Source of the DNA: Candidatus Limnocylindrales bacterium
Lineage (GTDB): Bacteria; Chloroflexota; Limnocylindria; Limnocylindrales; CSP1-4
NCBI GenBank assembly: GCA_051306295.1
Contig: JBPPMZ010000069.1
Location: 17,998-81,997 of the forward strand
Direction: 5' to 3'
DNA length: 64,000 bases
Numbering within the stretch: the first letter of the stretch is position 1; each line of letters begins with the position of its first letter. A program made the position numbers and the translations under genes. The notes beneath the pieces were generated by a model. The model was not told the origin of the DNA and searched no databases. It saw nothing but the letters and a program-made list of their open reading frames with translations. Below, piece after piece: positions 4,501-53,383 of this stretch.

Positions 4501-4860
4501 TCACTCGCCGCGGCGTTGCCAGTCGGGCAGGTTCGCGGCGTTCCAGTCGAGGCGCTCGGAGTCCCCGGAGGCCGGGTCGATCGAGTAGACCTCCTGCGTG
4601 TTCTCCGTGCGCATCAGGACTCGATCGCCGGCGGGCGACCAGGTCATGATCAGGCCCGTTTCCTCGACGAAGGTCGGTGGCCCGCCGTCGAGGGGCGCGA
4701 TCTCCAGCCGCCGATCGGGCACGTTCTGAGCGACCTCTAGAATGGATTTCCCATCGGGCGACCAGCTCCATCCGAAGCAGCCATCGACGTTGATGATCCC
4801 GACCTCCGCGAAGGATGAGGCGAACGGCCCGGTCCAGCCGCACGACGGCCGCTCGGGCAA
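4501..4860 (-). pseudogene. Fragment of a beta-propeller (TolB/WD40-like, WSPDG repeat) protein. Probably an N-terminally truncated remnant.
   Basis: 119 aa with WSWSPDGKSIL, IAPLDGGPPTFV, WSPAGDRV blade-like repeats. Too short for a full propeller. Abuts the tRNA. Confidence 0.4.
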
Positions 4861-4971
4861 GCTCGGCGGTCGTGATTCCCTGCCTCGCCAGGGTATGGCG
4901 TCCGTGTCAGGGGAACGGCTCTTGGGGGCTGGCCCGGCCGGGCAAGGGCCCGCGGGGCGAGGTCACCCGCG

Positions 4972-5109
4972 ATGACCAGGTCAGCCCGGGTGACCATTTC
5001 GCGACAGACGAGCGTGGCCGTGGCCCCAGGATGCAGGATTCCGCAGGCTGGGGCCACGGCCCGTGCTCATTCGTTCAAGACTGGTCAGCGGGGGTGACCT
5101 GGTCAGCCA
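4972..5109. repeat. Repeat A: 138-bp element with terminal inverted TGACCaGGTCA / TGACCtGGTCA motifs and a central 14-bp perfect hairpin (GGCCGTGGCCCCAG ... CTGGGGCCACGGCC)
   Basis: About 90% identical to copy B at 5677-5814. Direct orientation. Confidence 0.7.
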
Positions 5110-5125
5110 GCCTGACCTGGGGCGA

Positions 5126-5500
5126 TCAGCCAGCCGGCGACGCGGGCAGCGCATCCAGGAAGCGAACGGTGTCGAGCGAGGCCCGGTCGACCTGGAAGTC
5201 CCTGCCAGCAAAGGTCAGGGCCTCGAAGGTCAAGGTCACGCCATCGGCCTCGGTCACGACCAGGATGTTGCGACCGCCGATCGAGTCGTTCCAGAACCCG
5301 CCCCCGGCCGCCTGGGGGACCCAGGTGAGGATGCCGGTTCGGTCATTGGAGTCGCCATCCAGTGTCCAGCACGGGGCCGTCAGGTTCTCGCCGAAGTGCA
5401 GCTCGACCTCGACGGCCCGATGCCCGTCCATCGTGAACTCCTCCTGGCGGACGACGGTGAACCGTGCGTCTCCGTTCAGGTACGCCAGGAACGCGTCCAT
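5126..5500 (-). CDS. Hypothetical protein, likely 5'-truncated (protein-like coding continues upstream of the Met to an in-frame stop near 5611)
   Basis: 124-aa ORF. Upstream in-frame translation ...IDAGDYTFKVWKDLDGFADPCDLEKGRLLIDPG-M looks like genuine protein but has no start codon before a TGA. Confidence 0.4.
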   Translation of the reverse strand: MDAFLAYLNGDARFTVVRQEEFTMDGHRAVEVELHFGENLTAPCWTLDGDSNDRTGILTWVPQAAGGGFWNDSIGGRNILVVTEADGVTLTFEALTFAGRDFQVDRASLDTVRFLDALPASPAG

Positions 5501-7569: not shown

Positions 7570-8037
7570 TCACGGGGCGATCTTCGCGTACTGCCGCTCG
7601 AAATCGGCGTCGCGCAGTTCGCCGATCTGGATCGAGCGGATGACGCCCTCGCCATCGACGAAGTAGGTCTGTGGGCGTCCGGCCACCCGATACGTGGTCT
7701 TGTGCGCCTTGTCCGGATCCTCCACCGTGGGCCACGTCGCGCCGAAGTCGGCGACGAACAGGCGCGCCGGTTCCGGCGGGTCGTCGGTCAGGACGCCGAC
7801 GATCGCGAACTCGTCATCGGCATGCTCGGCGAGCTTGGCCAGGAACAGGGGGAACTCGTCGCGGCAGGGCACACACGACGGCCCCCAGAAGTTGATCAGC
7901 ACCGGCCGTCCGCGGTACGACGCAAGATCGAACGCCGCTCCATCCAGGGTGGTCCCCACGAGGGCCGGCGCCGCGCTGTCCACGGCGGCTCGCCGCGCCC
8001 CACCGTCCCGCGGACCCACGAACAGGTACACGCCCAC
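7570..8037 (-). CDS. TlpA/ResA-like thiol:disulfide oxidoreductase (thioredoxin fold, CVPC). The annotated GTG start lies inside a predicted TM anchor.
   Basis: WGPSCVPC motif. In-frame upstream sequence RRPTTPRRPILIALAIAVATTV (signal anchor) lies between a TAG at 8110-8112 and the first GTG at 8035-8037 with no ATG/GTG/TTG. Confidence 0.7.
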   Translation of the reverse strand: MGVYLFVGPRDGGARRAAVDSAAPALVGTTLDGAAFDLASYRGRPVLINFWGPSCVPCRDEFPLFLAKLAEHADDEFAIVGVLTDDPPEPARLFVADFGATWPTVEDPDKAHKTTYRVAGRPQTYFVDGEGVIRSIQIGELRDADFERQYAKIAP

Positions 8038-8109
8038 GGTCGTGGCGACCGCGATGGCCAGGGCGATGAGGATCGGACGTCGTGGCGTGGTCGGCCTCCG
8101 GCCAGGGTC

Positions 8110-9201
8110 CTACTGGACCGTGGCAGTCCCGGTCATCGACGGGTGGACCGTGCACAGGAAGGTGTACGCGCCGGCGGGCAGGGCCGGGACGTCGTAGACC
8201 TTGGTCGCGATGCCCGGGAAGATCTCACCGAGATACGCGACCGCTCCGCCGGCATCCTTCAGCTCGACGTTATGCGGGATCCCATCGTCGTCGTTGACGA
8301 AGGCGAGGGTGAACGGCTTGTCAGCCGGAGCCGTGATGCTCGTTGTCAGGAAGGCGATGCCCTTGGCCGTCACGGTGACGTCGGCGGCGGGTGGTGACGC
8401 CTCAGCACCGGCCGGTTCGCCCGAGGGTCCGCTGACTGGTGGGCCTGACGCGACGGGCACCTCCCCGCCACTCGCCCCACGAGGCGGCACCCAGCCACCC
8501 TGGATGAGGACGGCACCGACCAGCAGGATCCCCAGTCCGACGAAGAGCAGTGACGGCGTTCGCGGATCCGGGATGTTCTCGAGGTGGCCGGTCGTATCGG
8601 CCTCCTCCGTCTTGACGTACTCCTTGCGCGCATCCACGAGCCAGCCCAGCAGCGTCACGATGAGGGCGATGACGCCGACCGCCAGGACCCACTCCCCGAA
8701 GACCAGGCCGAGCATGAGCATCGCCGCGCCGAGCGCGCCCAGGAACGGCCGGTACGACGGTCCGGGCATGTGGACGCCGGGCGGGGGGCCGGGATGGATG
8801 ACGGCCGGCAGGGCCGGGGTCGTGGCGCCCGTGTCGTGCTCGTAGACGCGCAGCGCCTCGCGCAGCCAGTACAGCAGGCCGACCACCAGGCCGATCGCAC
8901 CGACGACCAGCACCAGGCCGCCGAACACGAGGCCCAGGAACAGCAGGAACGCTCCGAACGAGGCGACGATCGGCGCGAACGACGGCCCGGGCATGTGGAT
9001 CCCGGCGGGGGTCAGCGGCTCGATCCGGGCCTTGCCGCGCCGGGCCGGCGCCTGGTGGAAGAGCTTGAGGAAGACCCACAGCAGGATCGCGACGACCAGG
9101 AAGATGACCAGGATCGGAAGCAGTGCCACGACGGCACCCCAATCCGGGATGACGAACTGGGCCGTCAGCTCAAGGAAGCCGTTCCACAGGTCGTCGAGCA
9201 T
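8110..9201 (-). CDS. Membrane protein: tandemly duplicated CtaF (cytochrome oxidase subunit IV) C-terminal-like module fused to a C-terminal cupredoxin (type-1 copper) domain
   Basis: Two repeats of HMPGPS(F/Y)xP + TM helix pair (compare actinobacterial CtaF SPHSWWP region), then PHNV ... YTFLCTVHPSMTG cupredoxin ligand pattern (His, Cys, His, Met). Paralogous to the C-terminus of the CoxB gene. Confidence 0.65.
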   Translation of the reverse strand: MLDDLWNGFLELTAQFVIPDWGAVVALLPILVIFLVVAILLWVFLKLFHQAPARRGKARIEPLTPAGIHMPGPSFAPIVASFGAFLLFLGLVFGGLVLVVGAIGLVVGLLYWLREALRVYEHDTGATTPALPAVIHPGPPPGVHMPGPSYRPFLGALGAAMLMLGLVFGEWVLAVGVIALIVTLLGWLVDARKEYVKTEEADTTGHLENIPDPRTPSLLFVGLGILLVGAVLIQGGWVPPRGASGGEVPVASGPPVSGPSGEPAGAEASPPAADVTVTAKGIAFLTTSITAPADKPFTLAFVNDDDGIPHNVELKDAGGAVAYLGEIFPGIATKVYDVPALPAGAYTFLCTVHPSMTGTATVQ

Positions 9202-9215
9202 CGGTCAGGCGTCGA

Positions 9216-9410
9216 TCAGTCGTTCGAGGAACCGGCCGTCAGGACGTAGGCCATGATCGACATGGCGATCCCCAGGCAGAGCAGCAGCGTCACGCCGGCG
9301 TAATCGACGTGCCACCCGCCCACGGTCGGCACGACGAAGAAGATGATGCCGATGACGGCGAACGACGCGCCGATGACGATCGCGTTGCGGGAATGGCTCG
9401 CGGTCTTCAT
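9216..9410 (-). CDS. ctaF: Small 2-TM protein resembling the N-terminal half of actinobacterial cytochrome c oxidase subunit IV (CtaF)
   Basis: 64 aa from ATG at 9410: MKTASHSRNAIVIGASFAVIGIIFFVVPTVGGWHVDYAGVTLLLCLGIAMSIMAYVL. Positioned between ctaE and the CtaF-like/cupredoxin gene. Confidence 0.5.
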   Translation of the reverse strand: MKTASHSRNAIVIGASFAVIGIIFFVVPTVGGWHVDYAGVTLLLCLGIAMSIMAYVLTAGSSND

Positions 9411-9423
9411 GGCTTCAAGCCCC

Positions 9424-10086
9424 TTACGCGGCGGGCCCGGTCCCGGGCAGCAGATAGAGCAGGGAGAAGAGCAGGATCCAGACCACGTCGACGAAGTGCC
9501 AATACAGGCTGACCGCCTCGACCGCATCGTGGTGCTTGGCCGAGAACTGGCCGGCCATGCCGCGATAGAGCACGACGCCGAGCATGATCACCCCACCGAA
9601 GACGTGCGCGCCGTGGAAGCCCGTCAGGGTGAAGTACGTGGTCCCGAACGTCCCGGCCGAGAGCGTGATGCCCTCGCTGCCCAGGGCGGCGTAGTCGATC
9701 ACCTGCATGATCAGGAACACGATGCCGATGCTGAACGTGACCGCGATGTTCCGGATGAATGCCGTCCGGTCACCTCGACGGATGCCCCACACCGCGAACT
9801 GGCAGGTGAAGGACGAGAGGATCAACAGGACGGTGGCCGGCCCGACGAGCGGCAGGATCGCGAGGTGGAACGCCTCGTTGGTCTCAGGATTGAGCGGCGG
9901 CCACTGCGCGGCGTTCGCGCGGACGTTGAAGTAGGCCGCGAACAGGCCGGCGAAGAACATCACCTCGGAGGTGATGAACAGGAGCATCCCCAGGATGACG
10001 TTGCTGATGCCGCCGCCGGTCCCGTGCGCGGCGGCCGCCGGAGCGTGCTGGTCGGCCGTCGTCAGCGCGTGGCTATCGCTGGTCAC
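9424..10086 (-). CDS. ctaE: Cytochrome c oxidase subunit III
   Basis: GTG start at 10086 immediately after ctaD stop. 5 TM segments, conserved subunit III motifs (TGFHGAHV, LYWHFVDVVW). Confidence 0.85.
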   Translation of the reverse strand: MTSDSHALTTADQHAPAAAAHGTGGGISNVILGMLLFITSEVMFFAGLFAAYFNVRANAAQWPPLNPETNEAFHLAILPLVGPATVLLILSSFTCQFAVWGIRRGDRTAFIRNIAVTFSIGIVFLIMQVIDYAALGSEGITLSAGTFGTTYFTLTGFHGAHVFGGVIMLGVVLYRGMAGQFSAKHHDAVEAVSLYWHFVDVVWILLFSLLYLLPGTGPAA

Positions 10087-10088
10087 GG

Positions 10089-11726
10089 TCAGTGCCCCCC
10101 GGTCGCGGCGTCGCCGCGATGGCGCAGGTCGAAGACCGGGCGCTCCGAGCGGATCTCCGGCAGGCGATCGAAGTTGTAGGGCGGTGGCGGCGAGCTCGTC
10201 GCCCACTCCAACGTGTTGCCTTCCCACGGATCGTCGCCGGCCGGCTTGCCGCTGCGCAGCGAGACGAAGATGTTCCACAGGAGCGGCAGCATGCTGGCCG
10301 CGATCGTGAATCCGCCGACCGTGGCTGCCAGGTTCAGGTCGTTCCAGCCAGCGGTCGAGGCGTAATCGGCGATGCGTCGCGGCATCCCCGACAGCCCGAG
10401 CTCATGCATCGGGAAGAAGGTCAGGTTGAAGCCGATGAACATGAGCACGAACTGGACCTTGCCCAGACCCTCGCTCAGCATCCGGCCCGTCATCTTGGGG
10501 AACCAGTAGTACAGGCCGCCCATGATCCCGAACACCGAGCCACCGAACAGCACGTAGTGGATGTGGGCCACGACCCAGTACGTATCGTGGATGGCGAAGT
10601 CCACCGGCACCGACGCACTGAACGCGCCGTTGATGCCGCCGATGAGGAACATGCTCAGGAAGCCCAGCGCGAACAGGAGCGGGGTCTTGAGCATCAGCTG
10701 GCCGCGCCACAGGGTGAAGATCCAGTTGAACATCTTGACGCCGGTCGGGACCGCGATGAGGAACGTCATGAGGCTGAAGAACGGCAGGTAGACCGCGCCG
10801 GTCGTGAACATGTGGTGGGCCCACACGGAGAACCCGAGCGCCCCGATGCCGGCCGTCGCGAACACGAACGCCTTGTAGCCGAACAGCGGCTTGCGACTGA
10901 ACACCGGCAGGATCTCGCTGATCATGCCCATCGCCGGCAGGATCATGACGTAGACCGCCGGGTGCGAGTAGAACCAGAAGACGTTCTGCCAGAGGATCGC
11001 ATCGCCGCCGTTGGCGGGGTCGAAGAAGCTGCCGCCGAGATTGCGGTCGATGAAGAGCATGATCAGGGCGCTGGTGATGACCGGCGTCGCCATGAGCACC
11101 AGGACCGACGTCACGAGGACCGTCCAGGTCATGATCGGCATCCGGAACAGCGTCATGCCGGGAGCCCGCATCTTGAACATCGTGACCAGGAAGTTCACGG
11201 CGCCCAGGATCGAGCTCGTGCCGATGAGGATGAGCGCCACGATCCACAGGTCCTGCCCGGTCCCGACGGCCGCGAGGGGCCGGTCCTGGGCCAGCGGGCT
11301 GTAACTCGTCCAACCCGCCGCCGCCGACCCACCCGTCACGAACGATAGCAGGAGCAGGATGCCGCCCAGGGGCAGCATCCAGAACGACAGGGCATTGATG
11401 CGCGGGAAGGCCATGTCCGGCGCGCCGATCTGGAGCGGCACGATGTAGTTGCCGAAGCCCGCCAGCATCGGGATCACGAACAGGAAGATCATGAACGTGG
11501 CGTGCATCGTGAACAGTTCGTTGTAGGTCTGGTCGGTCACGAACTGGAGTCCCGGCTGTGCCAGCTCGACGCGCACACCCAGGGCGAGCAGGCCACCGAT
11601 GAAGAAGAACAGGAACGAGTTGATCACGTACAGGATCCCGATCTTCTTGTGATCGGTCGTGGTCACCCAGTCGTACAGCGTGGTGCGGTACGTCGGGGCG
11701 GCCGGGTGGAGCGCGGTGGTCGCCAC
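10089..11726 (-). CDS. ctaD: Cytochrome c oxidase subunit I (heme-copper oxidase)
   Basis: 545 aa, canonical subunit I sequence (His ligands, WFFGHPEVY-like region). GTG start with GAGGAG SD upstream. Confidence 0.95.
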   Translation of the reverse strand: MATTALHPAAPTYRTTLYDWVTTTDHKKIGILYVINSFLFFFIGGLLALGVRVELAQPGLQFVTDQTYNELFTMHATFMIFLFVIPMLAGFGNYIVPLQIGAPDMAFPRINALSFWMLPLGGILLLLSFVTGGSAAAGWTSYSPLAQDRPLAAVGTGQDLWIVALILIGTSSILGAVNFLVTMFKMRAPGMTLFRMPIMTWTVLVTSVLVLMATPVITSALIMLFIDRNLGGSFFDPANGGDAILWQNVFWFYSHPAVYVMILPAMGMISEILPVFSRKPLFGYKAFVFATAGIGALGFSVWAHHMFTTGAVYLPFFSLMTFLIAVPTGVKMFNWIFTLWRGQLMLKTPLLFALGFLSMFLIGGINGAFSASVPVDFAIHDTYWVVAHIHYVLFGGSVFGIMGGLYYWFPKMTGRMLSEGLGKVQFVLMFIGFNLTFFPMHELGLSGMPRRIADYASTAGWNDLNLAATVGGFTIAASMLPLLWNIFVSLRSGKPAGDDPWEGNTLEWATSSPPPPYNFDRLPEIRSERPVFDLRHRGDAATGGH

Positions 11727-11737
11727 GTGGATGCTCC

Positions 11738-12943
11738 TCAGTTGGCTGTGAGGGTGCCGGTCATGTTCGGGTGGACCGTGCAGACGAAGGTGTACGACCC
11801 GGCCGCCAGGGCCGGGACGTCATAGGTATTCTGGGCTGGCCCGCTGAAGATCTCGCCCTTGAAGACCTCGGGACCGGTCGGCGAACCCTCGTGGATGGCC
11901 ACGTTATGCGGCACGCCGTTGTCCTTGTTGTCGAACGTGATCTGGAACGGGGCGCCGCCGGTCACGCTGACCGCGGTCTGTTCGAAGGCGATGTTCAGGG
12001 CACTGATCGCAACGGGCGGCCCGGCTGGGGCTCCGGATGTCCCTGGCTCACCGGACGGTGCCGGTCCATCGGACGGAGGCGGCGGTGGCGTGGCCTGTGC
12101 TTCGGCGATCTTGGCCGCCAGCCAGGCGTCGAAGTCCGCGGGCGTCAAGGCGTTCACTTCGAACAGCATGATCCGGTGCCCAGCGCCGCACAGCTCAGCG
12201 CACTGGCCGCGGAACGTCTGGCCGACGTCCTTCTCGTTGACGTCGAATTCGAAGACGTTGGTCCGCCCGGGCACCACGTCCCGCTTGAACAGGAACTGCG
12301 GCACGTAGAAGGCGTGGATGACATCCGGGCTGGTGAGATACAGCTTCACGGAACGGCCCACCGGGACCGCCATGCCGCCGCCCTCGCCGGTCGGGAGGTT
12401 CTGGGTATAGAGCGGGGCCTTCGCCGTCTCGCCGGCGGCGGGCGGCTCCCAGTCCGCGGGCAGGTATTCGAACTGCCACTGGAACTGGCCCGCCACCGCC
12501 CGGATCTTGACGTCCGGCTGCGCGGAGACCGTTTCGACCGCGTTGAGCGTCTGCCACGAAGCGACGAACAGGAACGCGACGATGAGCGTCGGGACGACCG
12601 TCCAGATCAGCTCTGCCACGTTGTTGCCATGCGTCTGGACCGGAAGGGTGTCGTCACCGGGCTGGCGCCGATAGCGGATGACGGACCAGACGATGAGTCC
12701 TTCGACGAGGAAGAAGATGATGACCCCGATCAGGAAGACGATCGTGTACAGGTCACGGATCTGGGCGCCCTGGCTCGTCACCGCCTCCGGTGGATACAGG
12801 CTGGTCACGATCCGCTGCGACAGGCCGACCAGGTCGCCACCGCTCAGGAGTGCGAGCACCGCGACCGTGGCGACCAGCAACGCCCCGACCACGATGGCCG
12901 TGGTCGTAGCGGATGAGCGGCCGGTCCTGGGGGAACTCGCCAT
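11738..12943 (-). CDS. ctaC: Cytochrome c oxidase subunit II with an extra C-terminal cupredoxin (plastocyanin/azurin-like) domain
   Basis: CuA site CAELCGAGHRIM, then Pro-rich linker, then PHNVAIH ... YTFVCTVHPNMTG type-1 copper ligand pattern. Confidence 0.9.
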   Translation of the reverse strand: MASSPRTGRSSATTTAIVVGALLVATVAVLALLSGGDLVGLSQRIVTSLYPPEAVTSQGAQIRDLYTIVFLIGVIIFFLVEGLIVWSVIRYRRQPGDDTLPVQTHGNNVAELIWTVVPTLIVAFLFVASWQTLNAVETVSAQPDVKIRAVAGQFQWQFEYLPADWEPPAAGETAKAPLYTQNLPTGEGGGMAVPVGRSVKLYLTSPDVIHAFYVPQFLFKRDVVPGRTNVFEFDVNEKDVGQTFRGQCAELCGAGHRIMLFEVNALTPADFDAWLAAKIAEAQATPPPPPSDGPAPSGEPGTSGAPAGPPVAISALNIAFEQTAVSVTGGAPFQITFDNKDNGVPHNVAIHEGSPTGPEVFKGEIFSGPAQNTYDVPALAAGSYTFVCTVHPNMTGTLTAN

Positions 12944-13274
12944 GCAGGGTCCTCAACGGTTCGGTCGGGGCACACACCCGGACCAGGCGCGGGTCAAGAA
13001 CGGGTAGCGGTCCGGCCCACGGGGGTCGGACGGCGCCATGATACCCGGAGCGTGGGCCGCTCGCGTGGTCCTGCGTTGTGGCTCGGTGGGAGCAGGCCAG
13101 GGGCGCGCGACCGGCGATGTTCCCCCCAGTACCGCATCCGCGATAGACACCTCGTGGAATCGCGACGAAACGACGACGCCGTGTCGATCCTGCAAGGGAC
13201 CACGCACGTTCGTTCAGGATCCGGTACTGGCCGCACCGCCGAGGCGCGGGATCGGTTCGTGCGACGATGCGGGC

Positions 13275-14297
13275 ATGCGCACCCGTCGGCCCGTGGCCCT
13301 CCTCGCGGCCTGGCTCGCCGCCGCTCCGGCCGTCAGCGCCCATGGCGCGACCCCATCGGAACCGCCGACCGCCGCCTCGCTCCTGTTCGAGTGGACGCTC
13401 GAGCCGCTGCCCACGCTCGGGATCGTGGTCGCGCTCGCCGTCTGGTGGCGGCTCGTTGGTCGGGTGAACGCGGCCCACCCGGCGAATCCGGTGCCGCGTC
13501 GGCGGTCGGTGGCGTTCGCCCTGGGGCTGGCGGCCATCGCTGTCGCGCTGTTGTCCGGCATCGATGCCTACGACACGACGCTGTTCTCCGTGCACATGGT
13601 CCAGCACGTCCTGCTCACGTTCGTCGCCGCGCCGCTCATCGCGCTGTCCGGTCCGATCACCCTCCTGCTCCGTGCCTCGACGCCCGCCGTGCGTCAGCGC
13701 TGGATCCTCCCGGTCCTCCACTCGCGCACGCTCCGCGTGTTGGCCTTCCCGGTCGTGGCCTGGGTGGTGTTCGCCGCGGTGATGTGGGCGAGCCACTTCT
13801 CGCCGCTCTTCGATGCCGCGTTGGAGGACCCCCTCCTCCACGACCTGGAACACGGCCTGTTCCTCGGGACCGCGCTGCTGTTCTGGTGGCCGGTCGTGGC
13901 CGTCGATCCCGGCCCGTGGCGGATGCCGCACCCCGTCCGGGCCTTGTACGTGTTCCTGCAGATGCCCCAGAACACGTTCCTCGCGGTCGTCCTGCTGGGG
14001 GCGACGAACGTGCTCTACCCGCATTACGCGTCGACCGGCCGCACCTGGGGTCCCACGCCGCTCGCCGACCAGGGCACGGCCGCGGGCATCATGTGGATCG
14101 CCGGCGACGTGGTGTTCCTCATCGCGATCCTGGGGGTGATCGGAGCCTGGATGCGATCGGAGGCACGCGAGACGGACCGGACGGACCGACGGGCGGACGT
14201 CGAGCGGGCGGCCATCCGCAGCCGCGAACGGGAGTTGGCCGATCGCCTGACCCGCGAGCGCGAGGACGCTCAGTCCGGGAGTGGCGTCTCCAGGTAG
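13275..14297 (+). CDS. ctaG: Cytochrome oxidase assembly factor, Caa3_CtaG/CopD-like polytopic membrane protein
   Basis: Signal peptide, 7-8 TM, HMVQH motif. Divergent from ctaC. Confidence 0.6.
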   Translation: MRTRRPVALLAAWLAAAPAVSAHGATPSEPPTAASLLFEWTLEPLPTLGIVVALAVWWRLVGRVNAAHPANPVPRRRSVAFALGLAAIAVALLSGIDAYDTTLFSVHMVQHVLLTFVAAPLIALSGPITLLLRASTPAVRQRWILPVLHSRTLRVLAFPVVAWVVFAAVMWASHFSPLFDAALEDPLLHDLEHGLFLGTALLFWWPVVAVDPGPWRMPHPVRALYVFLQMPQNTFLAVVLLGATNVLYPHYASTGRTWGPTPLADQGTAAGIMWIAGDVVFLIAILGVIGAWMRSEARETDRTDRRADVERAAIRSRERELADRLTREREDAQSGSGVSR

Positions 14298-18074: not shown

Positions 18075-19244
18075 TCAGGCGCCGCGGAGCTTGGTCCAGG
18101 CCTCGACCCAGGCGTCCTGGTCCTTGCACGTCGTGGCTGCATCCTCATCGGCGCAGTCCGCCTCGGGCGTGGACCAGTACCAGATCTTGTCGTAGTAGGC
18201 CTCATCCGTGGCGTGGTTCAACTCGCAATGACCGGGCGACAGGGTCTCGGCGTAGTCACAGGCCTGCTGGCTCGTGGGAGCTTCGCCGAACCAGACCGTG
18301 GCCTGGCCGTTCGCCTCCGCGGACGCCATGTGATCCATCCACATGTACATGCAGTTGGGGTTCTTGGCCTTGGAAGCGATCATCCACGTGTCGGACCAGC
18401 CCGTGGAGCCCTCCGCCGGGAGGACCCCCGCGATCGGTTCGCCCTCGCCCTGCATCAGGTTGACCTGGAACTGCCACGACGTCCCGATGACGACATCATC
18501 GGCCGCATACGAGGCGACCTGATCGCTGTAGGTGCCCCAATACAGGGCTCCGCTGGCGTTCTGTGCCTCGAGGAGTGCGACCGCCGCGTCGAGTTGCTCC
18601 TGGTTGAGCTGGTACGGATTGGTGATGCCGAGATCGGGCTTGGTAGACATCAGGTACAGCGCCGCATCGGCGATGTAGATCGAGGAGTCGTAGACGCTGA
18701 CCTTGCCGCCATAGGTGCCGTCCCAGACCGGAGCCCAGCTGGTCGGCGCCGCGGTGACGACCTCGGTGTTGTACATGAGCAGGTTCGGGCCGCGCCCGTG
18801 GGGCACGCCATACGCCACGCCATCCAGCGAGTTGTGGGTCTTGTTCTTGAGGCCCTCGAAGATGTTCGCGTAGTTCGGGATCAGGGCCGTGTTGACGGGA
18901 GCGACGATGCCGCCGGCCATCAATCGGCTCGTGGCGTCACCCGAGAACGACCCACCGTCGTAGTCGCCCGACTGCATGAGCGACACGCCGTTGTTCGAGT
19001 CGGTCATGTCGGTCGTCTTGACGATGCAGCCGGTCTTCTCCTCGAACGGGGTGACCCAGTCGAAGTTGGGATCGACGGCGCCGCGTTCAGCGTAGCCGGC
19101 CCAGATCACGAGGTTCAGGGCGCCTTCGCCCTCGCCAAGGGACGCCTGGGCGCTCGGACCCGCTGATCCGGATGCGCCGCCGCTACAGGCGGCCAGCGCC
19201 AGGGCGGCGATGCCCACGAGCGAGACCAGTCTTCGGTGCTTCAT
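18075..19244 (-). CDS. potD: Polyamine ABC transporter substrate-binding lipoprotein
   Basis: Lipobox LAACSGG, PotD/PotF family. Confidence 0.85.
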
Positions 19245-20287
19245 GCGGTCCTCTCCTCCTCCATGCCGGACCCCCCGTCAGCGACGGGGAGCTCATGCTG
19301 TCGCTTCCACACGAGGCGGACAGCCTTGCCTTGCTGAGCGAGCGCCTCGCTCGAGGTCGTCGCGAGATTCTGCTGGGTGACGACCAGCCGCGAACCGGCT
19401 GCGAGCTCCACGATATAGCGCGTGTCCGGGCCGAGATAGACGACATCGTGGATGGTCCCCGGCGCCGTCGTCTCGTCGTCGCCGGCGACCGCGTCCGGCT
19501 CGGCCAGGCGGATCTTCTCCGGACGGATGGTGAACGTCCCGGATCGGCCCAGCACCTGGCGGGCGACGTCGCCGCTCAATAGGTTGGACGTGCCCACGAA
19601 GCCGGCCACGAAGCGCGTCGCGGGCTGTTCGTAGACCTGTGCCGGCGTCCCGAGTTGCTCGATCCGGCCGTCGCGGAAGACTGCCATCCGGTCGCTCATC
19701 GTGAGCGCTTCCTCCTGGTCGTGGGTCACGTAGATGAACGTGATCCCGACCTGTTGCTGGATGGCCTTGAGCTCGATCTGCATCTCCTCGCGGAGCTTGA
19801 GGTCCAGGGCGCCCAGCGGCTCGTCGAGGAGCAGAACGCGCGGTCGATTGACGAGCGCCCGGGCGAGGGCGACGCGCTGCCGCTGGCCGCCGGACAGCTG
19901 CGCCGGCTTGCGCGCCTCGTAGCCCTCCAGGCGGACCATGCGTAGCGCCTCGGTCACGCGCCGGCCGCGCTCGTCGCGGGGCACCTTGCGGACGACCAAC
20001 CCGTAGGCCACGTTCTGGCCGACCGACATATGCGGGAACAGCGCGTAGTCCTGGAAGACCGTGTTGACGTCACGGTCGAAGGGCGGCACCCGCGTGACGT
20101 CCTCCCCGTGGAGCAGGATCCGCCCGGCCGTCGGCAGCTCGAACCCGGCGATCATCCGCAGGGTCGTGGTCTTGCCCGAGCCGGACGGCCCGAGCATGGA
20201 GAAGAACTCGCCGTCGCGGACCTCCAGGTCCAGGCCGGCGACCGCGACGACATCGCCGTAGTGCTTCTCCACGCCTTCCAGGCGCAC
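19241..20287 (-). CDS. potA: Polyamine ABC transporter ATP-binding protein. Start uncertain: GTG 20287 preferred; in-frame TTG 20344 / ATG 20461 possible.
   Basis: Walker [29 protein letters not shown]-like C-terminus. ATG at 20461 would leave only 12 bp before the divergent gene. Confidence 0.8.
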
Positions 20288-20472: not shown

Positions 20473-20985
20473 ATGCAGGTGCTGTCGCGGACCATGGTCG
20501 TGCTGGCCATCGCCGCACTGGCGGCCGTCGTGGCAGGGGCGTGCGAGGCCGGCCCGCCGCCGGCGACCCCGCCCGTCGTGCCCGGGTCCTCCGCCCAGCC
20601 GCGTGAGGTCAACATCATCGCCAAGGACTACGCGTTCCTGCCCGACGCCGTGGACTTCGCGCCCGGTGAGACCGTCCTCCTGCATGTCATCAATGGCGGC
20701 ATGGAGATCCACGAAGCGATCATCGGGGATACCCGCGTCCAGGACGCCTGGGAGGTCGCGGAGGCCGCGACCGTTGGGGCCCCGCCCGGCCCGACACCCA
20801 TCGTCAGCGTCCCGCCTGATGTGAGCGGGATCCGGATCGTGGTCCGCTCCGGGGAGCGCGTGGACCTGGTCTGGACGGTCCCCGCGGACGCCGGGAGCGC
20901 GCCCTGGATCGTGGGCTGCCACATCCCGGGCCACTGGGCGAAGGGGATGCAGGTGCCTGTCCGGTGGCTCACCGCGACCGAATGA
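20473..20985 (+). CDS. Cupredoxin-like copper-binding lipoprotein
   Basis: Signal peptide plus lipobox VAGAC, His ... [12 protein letters not shown] copper ligand pattern. Confidence 0.65.
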
Positions 20986-48142: not shown

Positions 48143-49981
48143 TCAGCTACCTGACACGCCACCCTCGCCGTAGGAGCGAGGAAGCGCCTCGACCGTGGGC
48201 CGCGGCGTGCGCAGATCGCGCAGCGACTCCTGGTCCACGCCGGCGAGGCGCGGCAGGTCCGCCGACTCGGTCCGCAGCAGGCGCGACGTGAGGGTCGAGA
48301 ACACCAGTCTCTGGATCTCGGGCACGACCATCGTCGCGCGCAGTGCGTCGGCCGGCACCTCCAGGAGGATGGCGTCCTCCTCCGCGACGACATCGGCCGT
48401 CCGCGGGCTGCCGGTCAGGGCCGCGATCTCGCCGAAGAAGTCGCCGGCGCGCATCGTCGATAGACCGCGGTAGCCGCCGTCATCCTGTGGGATCCCCGCC
48501 GCCGCGACACCATCAAGGACGAAGTACGCCGACGACGCGACCTCACCGACCTGCACGATGCGCGTCCCGGAGGGAACGTCCCGGACGGTGGCATCGCGGA
48601 TGAAGGCCGCTCGCTGCTCCGGCGAGAGCCGGCTGAACGTCCCGAGGCGTCCCACCAGCCGATCGAAGTCGGCCGGCCTGGCCGCCCGCACCGGGATCGA
48701 GGCAAGGCTGGGTGCCCCCGCCATGGCCGCCGCCAGCCGCGCCGAGGCTGCCCGCCAGGTGGTGATGCCCAGGCCCGGGGCGACCAGGGTGAACGCCGCC
48801 GATACGAACAGCAGCGAGGAGGCGACGATGATGAGCAGGCGGATATCGACGATGTCGGCCAGGCCGGCGCCGGCCATGCCCAGCAGGAAGATGACATCGC
48901 GCATGACGTAGAACGCCGAGAACACGCGTCCCCGCATCTCGCGCGGCGTGTTCCGCTGAAGGATGACCGAGCGCGACACCGATGAGGGCGGCTGGAGGAG
49001 CCCGCTGATGGTCACGAGCAGGATGGCCGGCCCCACTTCTGTGGAGAAGGCGTAGCCGATCCCGGCGATGCCCATCCCGATCAGCGACACGACGATCCAG
49101 GCCGGTTCCGGCAGGAGCCGCGCGAAGCGCGCCATCAGCAATGACCCGGCCACGAACCCGACGGACGTGAGGCCTTCCTGCAGGCCGTACTCGAACTCCG
49201 TTGCGTTCAGTTCCCGGATGGAGAACGGCAGCAGGAGCACGTTCCACAGGCCGAAGGCCACGAACATGAACGCCCCGACGACGAACAGCGAGCGGATGAT
49301 CGGCGTCCCGAACAACGTGCGTATCCCGACCTTCAGGTTCGCCACGATGACCGCGACGCTGGCCTCCTCATCGGGCACCGGCATCGGGTAGCGCCCCATG
49401 AGCGAGATGAGGACGGCGCAGATGACGAACGAGGCCGCGTCCAGGATGAACGCCCAGGTCAAGCCGACGGTGCTCGCCAGCAGGCCGGCGCCGGCGAACC
49501 CGATGGCCGTCGAACCGAACGCCGCGATCGAGAGGAAGGCGTTCGCTGACGTCAGCTCCTCATCGCTGGCCATCTCCGGGATCAGGCTGTCGTGCGCCGG
49601 ATCGAAGAACTGCTTTACCCCGGCGTTGAGCAGGATCAGGGCGTACAGCCCGATGATCGAATCCATCTCCACGGTCAAGGCGATGAACCCGACGATGACC
49701 GACTGGATGAGGCACGTGACGATGAGGATCTTCTTGCGATCGTGGCGGTCGACGTAGACGCCCGCAAGCAGGCCGACGATGAGGCTGGGGACGGCCGTGG
49801 CCATGAGCGTCAGCCCGACCGCCAACGCGGACCCCGTCTCGCGATAGACCCAGATCCCGGCCGCGAGGTCGGTCAGCGACGACCCGGCGGTGGAGATGAG
49901 CTGCGCGAGCCACAGCAGGGAGAAGTCCCGGCGGCGGAACACCGCGAACATCGAGGGTGCCGGTGCGACGGCAGTGCTCAT
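48143..49981 (-). CDS. MFS transporter fused to a C-terminal cyclic-nucleotide-binding domain
   Basis: 12 TM MFS core from MSTAVAPAPSMFAVFRRRDF, then FGEIALLTGSPRTADVVA cNMP motif. Confidence 0.75.
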   Translation of the reverse strand: MSTAVAPAPSMFAVFRRRDFSLLWLAQLISTAGSSLTDLAAGIWVYRETGSALAVGLTLMATAVPSLIVGLLAGVYVDRHDRKKILIVTCLIQSVIVGFIALTVEMDSIIGLYALILLNAGVKQFFDPAHDSLIPEMASDEELTSANAFLSIAAFGSTAIGFAGAGLLASTVGLTWAFILDAASFVICAVLISLMGRYPMPVPDEEASVAVIVANLKVGIRTLFGTPIIRSLFVVGAFMFVAFGLWNVLLLPFSIRELNATEFEYGLQEGLTSVGFVAGSLLMARFARLLPEPAWIVVSLIGMGIAGIGYAFSTEVGPAILLVTISGLLQPPSSVSRSVILQRNTPREMRGRVFSAFYVMRDVIFLLGMAGAGLADIVDIRLLIIVASSLLFVSAAFTLVAPGLGITTWRAASARLAAAMAGAPSLASIPVRAARPADFDRLVGRLGTFSRLSPEQRAAFIRDATVRDVPSGTRIVQVGEVASSAYFVLDGVAAAGIPQDDGGYRGLSTMRAGDFFGEIAALTGSPRTADVVAEEDAILLEVPADALRATMVVPEIQRLVFSTLTSRLLRTESADLPRLAGVDQESLRDLRTPRPTVEALPRSYGEGGVSGS

Positions 49982-50031
49982 CCAGCCTCCAGGCGATGCC
50001 GGGTCGACGTCATCCGACCGTGGTCGGGAGT

Positions 50032-50595
50032 CTAGACGGCGCGTCGAGGCACCGTGACGCCCTCCCGCGCAAGGAGCTGCTGTTTGCGATCCAGGGCGTC
50101 GCCACGCCCGCCGGGTTCGTCGCCGCCATAGCCGCCCAGGGTCCCATCGGCTGCGATGACGCGATGGCAGGGGATGAGCAGGGCGATGGGACAGCGACCG
50201 ACCGCCCCGCCGACGGCTCGCGCGGCTCGCGGCGCGCCTACGCGCCGTGCGATCTCGCCATAGCTCGCCGTTTCGCCCCAGCCGAGCGAACGTACCGCCC
50301 CAAGGACGGCCTGATCGAAGGTGGGACGATCGGCGAGGTCGAGCGGCACGGAGGCGAGATCCTGCGACCGCCTGGTCAGGATGGCGTCGATCGCCGGCCG
50401 CCATCGACGCAGGAAGTCAGCCGCCGGCCCCTCCCTCACCGACTCGATCGAGCCCAGGCGTCGACCCAGATCACGCTCCATGGCCGACTCGTCGCCCCAC
50501 CACTCGGCCGCCACCACACCACGTTCCGTGGCGGCCACGGTCAACGGTCCATCGGGGCCGGGTAGGACCAGGACGGCGATCGGTTTGGCGCTCAT
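50032..50595 (-). CDS. ogt: Methylated-DNA-protein-cysteine methyltransferase
   Basis: PCHRV active-site motif. Confidence 0.85.
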
Positions 50596-50647
50596 CGTCG
50601 CGGCAGTGTGCCTGAACCTTGCCACCGCTCGCTTGCCGTCGTCTGCT

Positions 50648-50664
50648 ATACTCCCCTGGAGTAT
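50648..50664. promoter_or_regulatory. 17-bp perfect palindrome ATACTCC-CCT-GGAGTAT overlapping a TATACT -10 box and the copA ATG. Candidate metal-responsive operator.
   Basis: Perfect 7-3-7 inverted repeat. Same half-sites as at 15644-15660. Confidence 0.5.
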
Positions 50665-53383
50665 GAGAACCTTGAGCCCGACCCCTCCGCCAACCACCGA
50701 GATCCAGCTGCCCATCGAGGGCATGACCTGCGCGTCGTGCGTGAATCGCATCGAGCGATTCCTGAACAAGACGGACGGCGTCGAAGTCGCGACCGTCAAC
50801 CTCGCCACGGAGATGGCGACCATCCGCTACCTGCCCGACGTCGCCGGTCGCGAGGCGTTCGTCGCCGCGGTCGAGGCCGCCGGCTACGACGTCCGTGCCG
50901 TCCAGGAGCGGACCGCCGACGCCCCGCCCGTGACCCTCGCCGACGAGTTCACGGCCGAGGACCTGGAGCGCGAGCGCCACACCCGAACCCTGCTGCGCGA
51001 GGCGGTCGTCTCGATCGGCGTCGCGTTGCTGATCATGGTCGCGATGTTCACCCCGCAGACCAGCGTCGCGATGGAGGACATCAACCGGATCGTCCTGGTC
51101 CCGGCCACGATCATCCAGGTCTGGGCCGGCCGGCGCTTCTATCGGGCCGCGTGGCGGGCGATCAGCCACCGGACCACGAACATGGACACGCTCGTCGTGG
51201 TCGGCACGAGCGCCGCCTGGCTGTACAGCGTGTTCGTGACGTTCTTCCCCGAGGTCATCCACGAGGCCGGGCTGCACCCCGAGACCTACTTCGACTCGTC
51301 GACCATCATCATCGGCCTCATCCTGCTGGGTCGCTGGCTGGAGGCCCGGGCCAAGAGCAGCACGACCGGCGCGATCCGGCGCCTCATCGGCCTGCAGGCC
51401 ACCACGGCCCGGGTCGTCCGCGACGGTCGGGAGGAGGACGTCGCTCTGGAGGCGGTCGTCGTCGGCGACCTGCTCCGGGTCCGGCCGGGCGACAAGATCC
51501 CGGTCGACGGCGTCCTGGTCGAGGGCGCGTCGTCGGTCGATGCCAGCATGCTCACCGGCGAGCCGATGCCCGTCGAGAAGGGTCCCGGCGACGAGGTCAT
51601 CGGCGCGACCCTGAACACCACCGGCACGTTCGTCATGCGCGCCACCGCGGTCGGGCGCGACACCGCCCTGGCCCGGATCGTGGACCTGGTCAGCCGCGCC
51701 CAGGGCAGCAAGGCCCCCATCCAGCGTCTGGCCGATCGCATCGCCGAGGTCTTCGTGCCGATCGTGCTCGTCGTCGCGCTCGGGACGTTCGCGGTCTGGC
51801 TGCTGTTCGGCCCGGACCCGCGCCTGACTCTGGCGCTGACGTCGTTCATCGCGGTCGTGGTCATCGCCTGCCCGTGCGCCATGGGCCTCGCCACGCCGAC
51901 CGCGATCATGGTCGGGACGGGTCGCGGCGCGGAGGCCGGCATCCTCATCCGCGGCGGCGAAGCGCTTGAGACCGCCCATCGCGTGGACGCCGTCATCCTC
52001 GACAAGACCGGCACCCTGACCCTGGGCCGACCGACCGTCGCCGAGGTCGTGGCGGTGGCGGGCTTCAGCGCCCGCGACGTGCTGGACCTGGCGGCCTCGG
52101 CGGAGGCCGGCAGCGAGCATCCACTGGGTGCGGCGATCGTCGGACGCGCGCGCCAGGACGAGCTCGGCTTCGGCAAGATCGAGGCCTTCGAGTCGGTGAC
52201 CGGCGGCGGCGTGCGCGCGACCATCCGGACCGAGGCGGGCGAGCGTCACGAGGTCCTCGTCGGCAATCCACGCCTGCTCGGCAACGCGGGCATCGACCTC
52301 GCGCCGCTCGACGAGGCGATCTCCACTGCCACGGCCGCCGCCCGGACGCTGGCCATCGTGGCGGTGGACGGCCGCGCCGCCGGCCTGTTGGCGATCAGCG
52401 ACCCGGTCAAGGCTGAGTCCGCGATCGCCGTCCGGGAGCTGCTGGCTGCCGATATCGAGGTCTGGCTCGTGACCGGCGATGCCCGTGCCACGGCCGAGGC
52501 CGTTGCCGCCCAGGTCGGCATCCCGGCACACAACGTCCTCGCCGAGGTGCTGCCCGCCGACAAGGTCGCCGTCGTCGAGCGACTGCAGGCCCGTGGCCGG
52601 ATCGTGGCCATGGTCGGCGATGGCATCAACGACGCCCCGGCCCTCGCCCAGGCGGACCTCGGGATCGCGATCGGGACCGGGGCGGACGTGGCCATCGAGG
52701 CCGCCGGCGTGACCCTGGTCGGCGGCGATCCGCGCGGCGTCCCGGCGGCGATCGGGCTGTCGCGCGCGACGATGGGCGTCATCCGCCAGAACCTCTTCTG
52801 GGCGTTCGCCTACAACGTGCTGCTCATCCCGGTCGCCATGGGCGTGCTCTTCCCCGCGTTCGGCGTCCTGCTCTCGCCGGCCCTCGCGGCCGGAGCCATG
52901 GCCCTCTCGTCGGTCAGCGTCGTGGCCAACTCGCTCCGTCTGCGCCGCTATGACGCTCGTCCGGATGCAGCCCACCGGGTCGCCAGCGGGGGTGCGGTCG
53001 CGCGGGTGCGTGAGGCCTGGTTCCTGCTGGTCATCGCGCTCGCCTCGTTCGGTGTCGCCGGCGGCGTCCTGGCGGCCGACCAGGCGATCGAGGCCGGCGC
53101 CCAGCGTGTCGCGGTCCGCGCCGCCGATGTCCGTTTCATGCCCGCCGAGATCCGCGTGCAGGCAGGCCGGTTCGTGGTCGTCGAGTTCACCAACGACGAC
53201 CCGATCTTCCACGACTGGATGGTGGAAGGGGTCGCCAACGTTGACGCGGGCGCGCGGCCAGGCCAGACCCAGAAGATCCGCTTCCGGATCGACCAGCCAG
53301 GCACGTACGAGATCCTGTGCAGCGTCGAAGGCCATGCCGAGGCGGGCATGATGGGCACTCTGATCGTGGAGCCGGCCGAGTAG
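50663..53383 (+). CDS. copA: Copper-translocating P1B-type ATPase with N-terminal HMA domain and an additional C-terminal cupredoxin-like domain
   Basis: [27 protein letters not shown] motifs. C-terminal FHDW ... [17 protein letters not shown] (His, Cys, His, Met). Confidence 0.9.

Follow-up and report, generated by a model that had tools for sequence, protein, structure and literature searches.

Predicted blue-copper domains fused to two subunits of an A2-type haem-copper oxidase in Limnocylindria

Members of the class Limnocylindria (Chloroflexota), known from uncultured soil and freshwater lineages, are monoderm according to the literature, which also ascribes to them, in general, terminal oxidases of the 'cytochrome c' kind. 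Here we consider one such oxidase operon, from a metagenome-assembled genome (MAG) of Candidatus Limnocylindrales, and the copper domains that are fused to two of its subunits. The window, by which we mean the whole stretch of 64,000 nucleotides that was analysed (GenBank assembly GCA_051306295.1, contig JBPPMZ010000069.1, positions 17,998 to 81,997), carries on its minus strand at 7570-12943 a tight operon comprising coxB, coxA, coxC, an open reading frame (ORF) of 64 residues, a gene at 8110-9201 for a protein of 363 residues to which we give the working name IVcup, and a tlpA/resA-like redoxin gene, with ctaG divergent from coxB (Table 1). One genome per species was scanned for relatives of IVcup, yielding 255 genomes with a relative, of which the best 80 loci were examined; in every one of these with sufficient flanking sequence the order ctaG<>coxB-coxA-coxC-small ORF-IVcup-tlpA is retained. 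An earlier note, made from the sequence of the window alone, had placed the genes in an aa3 oxidase operon, and they do lie in one of the A family, with Pfam matches to COX1, COX2 and COX3. Its premise that the host is an actinobacterium does not hold, IVcup being identical to a protein on an 85-kb contig of a Candidatus Limnocylindrales MAG, and the contrast it drew with the actinobacterial bcc-aa3 supercomplex is therefore not directly applicable, even though the core subunits are closest to mycobacterial CtaC and CtaD.

Domain and fold comparisons confirm that CoxB and IVcup each end in a cupredoxin with a predicted type-1 copper site. Translation places the motifs that had first drawn attention to these regions at the C-terminus of CoxB (...GVPHNVAIHEG...YTFVCTVHPNMTGTLTAN) and of IVcup (...GIPHNVELKD...YTFLCTVHPSMTGTATVQ). 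Pfam recognises COX2_TM (residues 50-130), COX2 (191-263) and Cupredoxin_1 (308-400, E 1e-9) in CoxB, together with a match to Copper-bind (E 2e-5), and in IVcup it recognises Cyt_c_ox_IV (148-190, E 6e-11) followed by Cupredoxin_1 (272-362, E 9e-9); the Cupredoxin_1 match lies above the Pfam cut-off in both proteins. The two C-terminal domains share 48% identity over 102 residues (E 3e-31), and so are the close paralogues that they were proposed to be. Their closest solved relative is amicyanin, both in sequence (1id2, E 1e-6) and in fold (Foldseek E 1.5e-8), with the auracyanins of Roseiflexus and Chloroflexus and the plastocyanins ranking next in fold and a Foldseek probability of 1.00 to all three kinds. 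The AlphaFold2 (AF2) model of the IVcup domain has eight strands, at a predicted local distance difference test score (pLDDT) of 94-98.

The putative copper ligands form a His/Cys/His/Met set distinct from that of CuA, in which Cys, His and Met sit on a Cys-x2-His-x2-Met loop spaced as in amicyanin. Their conservation in orthologues, the lack of which the earlier note had named as a ground for refutation, is complete: all four are present in 100% of 80 subunit-IV domains and 52 CoxB domains from related genomes, and those of IVcup are also invariant in sets of 17 and 64 orthologues. In an alignment of 17 diverse CoxB fusions only 31-49% identical (A3), the type-1 and CuA ligands are both invariant, and the CuA ligands are so again in an alignment of orthologues (A4). 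Both domains are thus, from their ligands, presumably occupied by copper. Neither is a stand-alone, singly anchored carrier; each is the C-terminal part of a polytopic oxidase subunit, to which it is joined by a segment whose variable length, richness in Pro, Gly, Ser and Ala and low pLDDT are as expected of a tether. Among orthologues this segment spans 3-40 residues in CoxB (median 16) and 24-46 in IVcup (median 31), which gives the IVcup domain the longer reach.

CoxB is recognised as a subunit II (NCBIfam CoxB, 168 bits, above cut-off), with mycobacterial CtaC and subunit II of the Thermus caa3 oxidase (2yev_B, aligned over the core) as its best solved relatives. No solved structure was found that combines a CuA core with a cupredoxin, Foldseek matches to the full protein being restricted to the CoxB core; the AF2 model of the whole subunit (pLDDT 88, predicted TM-score (pTM) 0.75) is compatible with a defined arrangement of the domains. 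Two details of CoxB deserve a separate mention. The first Trp of the QWxW motif, through which electrons from cytochrome c reach CuA in other oxidases, is replaced by Phe in the window (F154, QFQW, 12482-12484) and in all 59 loci checked; most of the distant CoxB-cupredoxin fusions of A3 have Trp there. After the first helix, the consensus of A4 has a lipobox-like 'LLxGC', at which the window reads LLSGGD (~12830-12850) with no Cys, so that this copy may not be lipid-modified.

CoxA has its closest solved relatives overall in mycobacterial CtaD (E 3e-200), followed by the Thermus caa3 enzyme (E 1.5e-157). At Y253-S254 (window 10965-10970), within the motif WFYSHPAVY, Tyr-Ser replaces the D-channel Glu of HPEVY, and the motif recurs in 69 of 77 loci besides the window. 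The Tyr-Ser motif defines the A2-type oxidases, to which the caa3 enzymes of Thermus and Rhodothermus belong; mycobacterial CtaD is A1-type. CoxC covers only positions 76-255 of the 258 in the Pfam COX3 profile, that is, from the third helix on.

What CoxC lacks appears to be found in IVcup. The membrane part of this protein, with six predicted helices (AF2 pTM 0.35), contains a tandem repeat in which residues 65-124 and 140-204 are 52% identical (E 9e-21), each unit consisting of an HMPGPS motif and a helical hairpin. The earlier description of the protein as CtaF-like is right for this hairpin and for nothing else: PF12270 (CtaF) scores 43.1 bits against a gathering cut-off of 26.9, yet it covers the hairpin only (positions 81-125 of 132), and does so twice, strongly in repeat 2 and weakly in repeat 1. 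IVcup is accordingly no full-length, four-helix CtaF, which would span some 130-140 residues and the whole profile, and a genuine PF12270 protein of 133 residues from a related cluster (L084) aligns with it solely through its C-terminal hairpin. A profile built from 20 repeat pairs and two single-hairpin relatives, run against solved chains, instead leads to transmembrane helices (TM) 1-2 of seven-helix subunit III, the segment of the HxxxPSxWP ... WW/GW motif, with matches to mouse COX3 (residues 9-65, E 8e-6), to the human and bovine proteins and to Rhodobacter sphaeroides subunit III (E 4e-4), as well as to the extra C-terminal helices of Bacillus subtilis QoxB (E 3e-5) and, more weakly, to the region where subunits I and III join in the fused protein of Thermus caa3. 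By this homology the IVcup module consists of the TM1-2 hairpin of subunit III twice over, in tandem. Since CoxC is itself without TM1-2, the simplest reading is that one of the hairpins completes subunit III, which would make IVcup a genuine oxidase subunit, integral to the complex. Counts of Lys and Arg in the loops predict that the N-terminus is outside, the three long loops inside, and the linker and cupredoxin outside, on the side of CuA.

The 64-residue protein encoded between coxC and IVcup, which has no family match, is a probable small oxidase subunit. We had considered it as the N-terminal half of a split CtaF and rejected the idea, as the match of repeat 2 to PF12270 drops from 34.9 to 30.9 bits when the two are joined and the small protein has no similarity to the N-terminal half of genuine CtaF.

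Table 1. Genes and domains of the oxidase locus, in window coordinates
Feature	Coordinates	Strand	Remarks
coxB/ctaC, subunit II	11738..12943	-	401 residues; N-terminal signal/anchor helix, 2 TM helices, CuA domain, Pro/Gly/Ser linker, C-terminal type-1 cupredoxin
CoxB CuA domain	12116..12526	-	~residues 140-276; CuA motif CAELCGAGHRIM
CoxB low-complexity Pro/Gly/Ser/Ala linker	12023..12115	-	~residues 277-307; pLDDT 59-74
CoxB type-1 (blue) copper cupredoxin domain	11741..12022	-	residues 308-401; predicted ligands His of PHNV and Cys, His, Met of CTVHPNM
coxA/ctaD, subunit I, A2-type haem-copper oxidase	10089..11726	-	Pfam COX1 E 7e-165
coxC/ctaE, five-helix subunit III without TM1-2	9424..10086	-	probable GTG start at 10086, right after the coxA stop (start-codon scan)
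small conserved protein	9216..9410	-	64 residues, two TM helices; 37-67% identity, position kept in nearly all 80 loci
IVcup	8110..9201	-	predicted membrane protein of six helices (one at the N-terminus, two hairpins of subunit-III type in tandem, a C-terminal anchor), long flexible linker, type-1 cupredoxin on outer face
IVcup hairpin repeat 1	8830..9009	-	residues 65-124; HMPGPS motif and 2 TM helices; weak PF12270 match, E 0.023
IVcup hairpin repeat 2	8590..8784	-	residues 140-204; HMPGPS motif and 2 TM helices; PF12270 positions 82-125, E 1.9e-8
IVcup Gly/Pro/Ala/Ser-rich tether	8395..8499	-	~residues 235-269; pLDDT <50 for 241-267
IVcup type-1 cupredoxin domain	8113..8394	-	residues 270-363; predicted ligands H310, C350, H353, M356
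tlpA/resA-like membrane-anchored thiol-disulfide oxidoreductase	7570..8088	-	CVPC motif; Pfam AhpC-TSA, Redoxin; NCBIfam ResA/TlpA below cut-off
ctaG, Caa3_CtaG-type oxidase assembly factor, divergent	13038..14297	+	Pfam PF09678 E 2e-73; conserved divergent neighbour in loci; true start probably downstream of 13038

Homologues of IVcup are numerous (1836 detected), the best 120 being full-length with the same two Pfam domains. The labels of the best 80 loci are nearly all those of Chloroflexota, Chloroflexia or Limnocylindria MAGs, with two assigned to Saccharimonadales/Patescibacteria. The coxB region is complete in 58 loci, and in 50 of these CoxB has the fused cupredoxin with its ligand motif. 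The remaining eight comprise four in which CoxB ends after the Pro-rich linker without a cupredoxin, IVcup being retained and the CuA motif intact (coxB at ~3400-4370 in L013, L039 and L051, and at 1558-2850 in L047), three in which coxB runs into coxA as if by a frameshift (L046, L050, L071) and one (L057) that keeps the Cys-His-Met loop with the His-motif pattern unmatched. Fusions of CoxB to a cupredoxin are widespread in MAGs labelled Chloroflexota and Actinomycetota. A profile of the fusion gave 4060 matches, of which the best 120 all combine PF02790, PF00116 and PF13473, with Actinomycetota, Actinomycetes, Chloroflexota and Limnocylindrales MAGs as named sources; a search of cluster representatives with CoxB returned many full-length subunit II proteins, only 33-49% identical to that of the window, that also end in a type-1 domain (one of them in two, in tandem), as well as stand-alone proteins with two to four tandem cupredoxins.

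The fusion of a cupredoxin to the subunit-IV-type protein, by comparison, was found only in Limnocylindria-type genomes among those examined. Three further clusters (L082, L083, L084) have coxB-cupredoxin, coxA and coxC with a second cupredoxin in none of them; coxC is followed in L082 by a gene for a helix-plus-hairpin protein of 116 residues, and in L084 by that for the plain PF12270 protein of 133 residues. Two more loci encode stand-alone proteins of three or four tandem type-1 domains close to the CoxB-fused one (L086, 1495-3222 and 3280-4302; L085), the triple-cupredoxin gene of L085 (1293-2636) being flanked by ctaG and a tlpA-like gene within a cox cluster that adjoins a ctaA-ctaB fusion and nuo genes. 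In a neighbour-joining tree, built without support values, all 80 subunit-IV domains form one clade nested within the CoxB-fused domains, which suggests that the subunit-IV copy is a duplicate of the CoxB domain that arose in the Limnocylindria stem.

The reading we favour, and judge to have a somewhat better than even chance of being correct, is that of an A2-type haem-copper (aa3-like) oxidase which electrons enter through copper and not through haem c, with the tethered blue-copper domains feeding CuA. It builds on the established identities of the domains, the conservation of their ligands and of the operon, the homology of the hairpins and the logic of the topology; which way and in what order the electrons move, and from which donor, we infer. 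Both copper domains would lie on the outer (P) face, beside CuA. There, the IVcup domain would take electrons from a putative upstream quinol-oxidising complex and hand them to the CoxB-fused domain and/or straight to CuA, from which they would pass to haem a and on to the binuclear centre, while the TlpA-like reductase may keep the copper-ligand cysteines reduced for metallation. The fusion site in CoxB is the C-terminal position after CuA at which Thermus caa3 has its haem c domain. A carrier tethered in this way would suit a monoderm cell because a soluble one would be lost from it. The earlier note had offered an alternative electron entry or a copper-delivery route; the redox-type ligands favour the former, which is probably the main route into the enzyme rather than an alternative one, and the latter is taken up below.

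Several observations weigh against this assignment. All source genomes are MAGs, and the function is read from their sequences. Neither the window nor 1.1 Mb of related loci yielded a gene for a Rieske protein, cytochrome b, Alternative Complex III (ACIII) or a c-type cytochrome: across the window and 82 loci there are no Rieske motifs and only two ORFs with a single CXXCH motif, and among the 57 window ORFs searched with Pfam, no genes for complex III, ACIII or cytochrome c maturation were found. The two cupredoxins show no electrostatic complementarity, both having a net charge of about -5. Finally, the four genomes that keep IVcup without the CoxB cupredoxin imply that the two domains are not an obligatory series, so that the order of transfer is speculative.

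An extension of the same idea would cover the whole aerobic chain of the Limnocylindria, and here we are doubtful, though we consider it worth stating. No c-type cytochrome might stand between the quinol-oxidising complex and oxygen, and two tethered type-1 copper centres, one on subunit II and the other a swinging arm on a duplicated subunit-III hairpin, could serve as the wire, a copper counterpart of di-haem QcrC, possibly joined in an obligate supercomplex to a Rieske/cytochrome b complex devoid of a cytochrome c subunit. In the part examined of published KEGG Orthology lists for these lineages, K00412, K02635 and K02636 are present and K00411, K00413 and K03886-K03889 are not; the scope of those lists is unclear, and they offer a weak lead only.

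The proposed enzyme has counterparts among oxidases in which a carrier is attached to, or dedicated to, the terminal complex. The caa3 oxidases (Thermus thermophilus, 2YEV; Rhodothermus marinus; Bacillus) are likewise A-family enzymes with a donor domain fused C-terminally after the CuA of subunit II, the A2-type Tyr-Ser motif is shared with Thermus and Rhodothermus, and a tethered carrier is advantageous in these organisms. Here, however, the carrier is a type-1 copper cupredoxin and not haem c, with neither a CXXCH motif in the sequence of CoxB nor a cytochrome c domain in its Pfam matches; subunits I and III are unfused, and a second copy of the carrier sits on a separate membrane subunit. 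The enzyme is hence no caa3 oxidase, although it may work alike. Actinobacterial bcc-aa3 (CtaC, CtaD, CtaE, CtaF and di-haem QcrC) provides the closest solved relatives of the core subunits, and resembles the proposed system in its five-helix subunit III, with the missing hairpin coming from a subunit-IV-type protein (PF12270), and in the pair of tethered redox centres that link complex III to CuA in series. Those centres are two haems c on QcrC rather than copper on oxidase subunits, and CtaF is a single-hairpin protein that lacks a soluble domain.

Blue copper itself has precedents as the carrier. In the SoxM supercomplex of Sulfolobus with sulfocyanin (SoxE), and with the sulfocyanin of Ferroplasma, a membrane-bound blue-copper protein replaces cytochrome c between Rieske/cytochrome b and the CuA subunit; that protein is separate, singly anchored, archaeal and of another cupredoxin subfamily, whereas the domains described here are covalent parts of oxidase subunits, one of subunit II and the other of a polytopic protein. 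The Pfam SoxE family matches neither of the two oxidase-fused domains, and a cupredoxin fused to a copper ATPase elsewhere in the window matches it only below threshold. Nearer in phylogeny, at the level of the phylum, Chloroflexus and Roseiflexus have auracyanins, type-1 cupredoxins that are tethered to the membrane and believed to shuttle electrons between ACIII and the terminal acceptors. Their fold matches are good (6kol, 1qhq, 2aan), but they are stand-alone proteins with an N-terminal anchor, the similarity in sequence is weak (E 0.026), and no ACIII gene was seen near this operon. Amicyanin from Paracoccus, the best match in both sequence and fold and identical in the length of its Cys-x2-His-x2-Met loop, differs in being a soluble periplasmic protein that serves methylamine dehydrogenase, and the identity is only ~30%. 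In the rus operon of Acidithiobacillus ferrooxidans, AcoP ('cup') and rusticyanin are cupredoxins encoded inside a cox operon, and a membrane-anchored cupredoxin partners the oxidase; these are, though, products of separate genes that work with c-type cytochromes in acidophilic Fe(II) oxidation.

The last two of these precedents point to a different role for the same domains, as an entry port that bypasses the quinol-oxidising complex and accepts electrons from a dehydrogenase on the outer face, as amicyanin does from methylamine dehydrogenase, or from an inorganic source, for instance Fe(II), in the manner of the cox-operon cupredoxins of Acidithiobacillus (cup/AcoP and rusticyanin) and the sulfocyanin of Ferroplasma. 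We regard this as unlikely, given that no gene for a dehydrogenase, a Cyc2-like porin-cytochrome or another donor was found in the conserved neighbourhood, and that the feature is universal in soil, sediment and freshwater members of the class, which speaks for a housekeeping role over a niche substrate.

Copper delivery or buffering, in which the cupredoxins, as tethered metallochaperones or copper stores, would act with CtaG and the TlpA-like reductase to fill CuA and/or CuB while the enzyme assembles, strikes us as improbable. The neighbourhood does suit it, as the Caa3_CtaG protein and the TlpA/ResA-like redoxin are assembly factors, and so does the CopA-type copper ATPase of the same genome, whose fused cupredoxin implies a use in copper transport; cupredoxin-fold chaperones such as CupA are also known. 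The ligands tell otherwise, being the full redox-type His/Cys/His/Met set with an amicyanin loop, where PCuAC, Sco and CupA have motifs rich in Met and His or a pair of Cys. Neither PCuAC (PF04314), a fold with an H(M)x10Mx21HxM motif, nor Sco (PF02630), a thioredoxin fold with CxxxC and a His, matches CoxB or IVcup in Pfam at E<=0.01. A Limnocylindria-type contig of 3.6 Mb (L081) that shares the operon encodes Sco1/SenC and PCuAC-like (PF04314) proteins separately, some 4 kb downstream (18895-20132); ORFs at the matching place in the window (4501-5500) have no Pfam match. The oxidase-fused domains are, moreover, bound permanently and stoichiometrically to structural subunits, and the four lineages without the CoxB domain retain an intact CuA motif. 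Very improbable, lastly, is an appendage without a part in catalysis that would stabilise a supercomplex or dimer, sense redox state or simply be a decaying fusion, for even though the AF2 placement of the IVcup domain is not confident and the CoxB domain has been lost in four genomes, the four ligands are perfectly retained in the two families, however deeply diverged, and in the distant fusions too, which would be unexpected of a purely structural or decaying domain.

Carriers of haem c tethered to an oxidase or its supercomplex, as in caa3 and actinobacterial QcrC, are already known, as are free blue-copper carriers in archaea and Chloroflexus. What the present locus adds is blue copper as a covalent part of two subunits of a bacterial A-type oxidase, conserved throughout a class that is abundant in soils and lakes. 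A literature search found only the known stand-alone cupredoxin partners and no description of CoxB-cupredoxin or subunit-IV-cupredoxin fusions; as far as that search shows, a fused-carrier oxidase of this kind is thus both widespread and undescribed, and the CoxB-only fusion stands in thousands of database sequences labelled merely 'cytochrome c oxidase subunit II' or 'plastocyanin'. If the copper-fed reading is correct, 'cytochrome c oxidase' is a name that gives these enzymes the wrong substrate, respiration in the organisms that use them would be bound more to the supply of copper and less to the biogenesis of haem c, and the complex would offer electron-transfer biophysics a natural, compact system of type-1 copper, CuA and haem a. 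The membrane module indicates, in addition, that the first hairpin of subunit III can become separate from the rest, be duplicated and find a new use in anchoring a protein to the membrane.

The tlpA-like gene at the end of the operon appears to have an unusual start. The frame 5' of its listed GTG start at 8037 encodes a conserved membrane anchor (PRRPILIALAIA...) and contains no canonical start codon. In orthologues, the codon before a shared Pro-Arg-Arg-Pro is ATG in 16, GTG in one and ACG in 54 (55 by a looser pattern). ACC, ACA and ACT never occupy this position, and ACG makes up only ~41-54% of the Thr codons in these genes; a Shine-Dalgarno-like purine run lies upstream of the ACG in 53 of the 54 orthologues, and 47 of them have no canonical in-frame start further upstream. 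The gene therefore probably initiates at the ACG at 8088-8086, and the GTG chosen by gene callers truncates the protein and removes its membrane anchor. Readthrough of the IVcup stop codon into this gene was also considered, as in the window both are read in one frame, that of tlpA being open from the IVcup TAG onwards, and was rejected when the same relation of frames turned up in only about half of the orthologous loci.

Elsewhere in the window, the earlier note had counted two further cupredoxins; to call all four paralogous would overstate what holds for the CoxB and IVcup pair. A CopA-type P1B copper ATPase (E1-E2_ATPase, Hydrolase and HMA domains; 50321-53383, plus strand) does end in a cupredoxin, at residues 919-1016 (~53075-53380), with a His/Cys/His/Met set on a C-x4-H-x4-M loop; hhalign relates it to the oxidase-fused domains with a probability of 96%, yet it is distant from them, at 19-27% identity. 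The supposed free cupredoxin lipoprotein at 20473-20985 (plus strand) is a secreted and possibly lipoprotein-like protein of 170 residues, with AGAC after its signal helix, an ...IHEAII... segment and a C-x4-H-x4-M motif. Domain and structure searches failed to confirm it, with no match in Pfam or the PDB, 8% in hhalign over the N-terminal half, and a weak CopI-like match in NCBIfam, also N-terminal, of 39 bits against a cut-off of 280; a cupredoxin fold is plausible but unconfirmed. Divergent from the CopA-cupredoxin gene lies that of a major facilitator superfamily transporter with a C-terminal cyclic-nucleotide-binding domain (48143-50404, minus strand), and the window also holds a Crp-family regulator, a GAF protein and an adenylate/guanylate cyclase.

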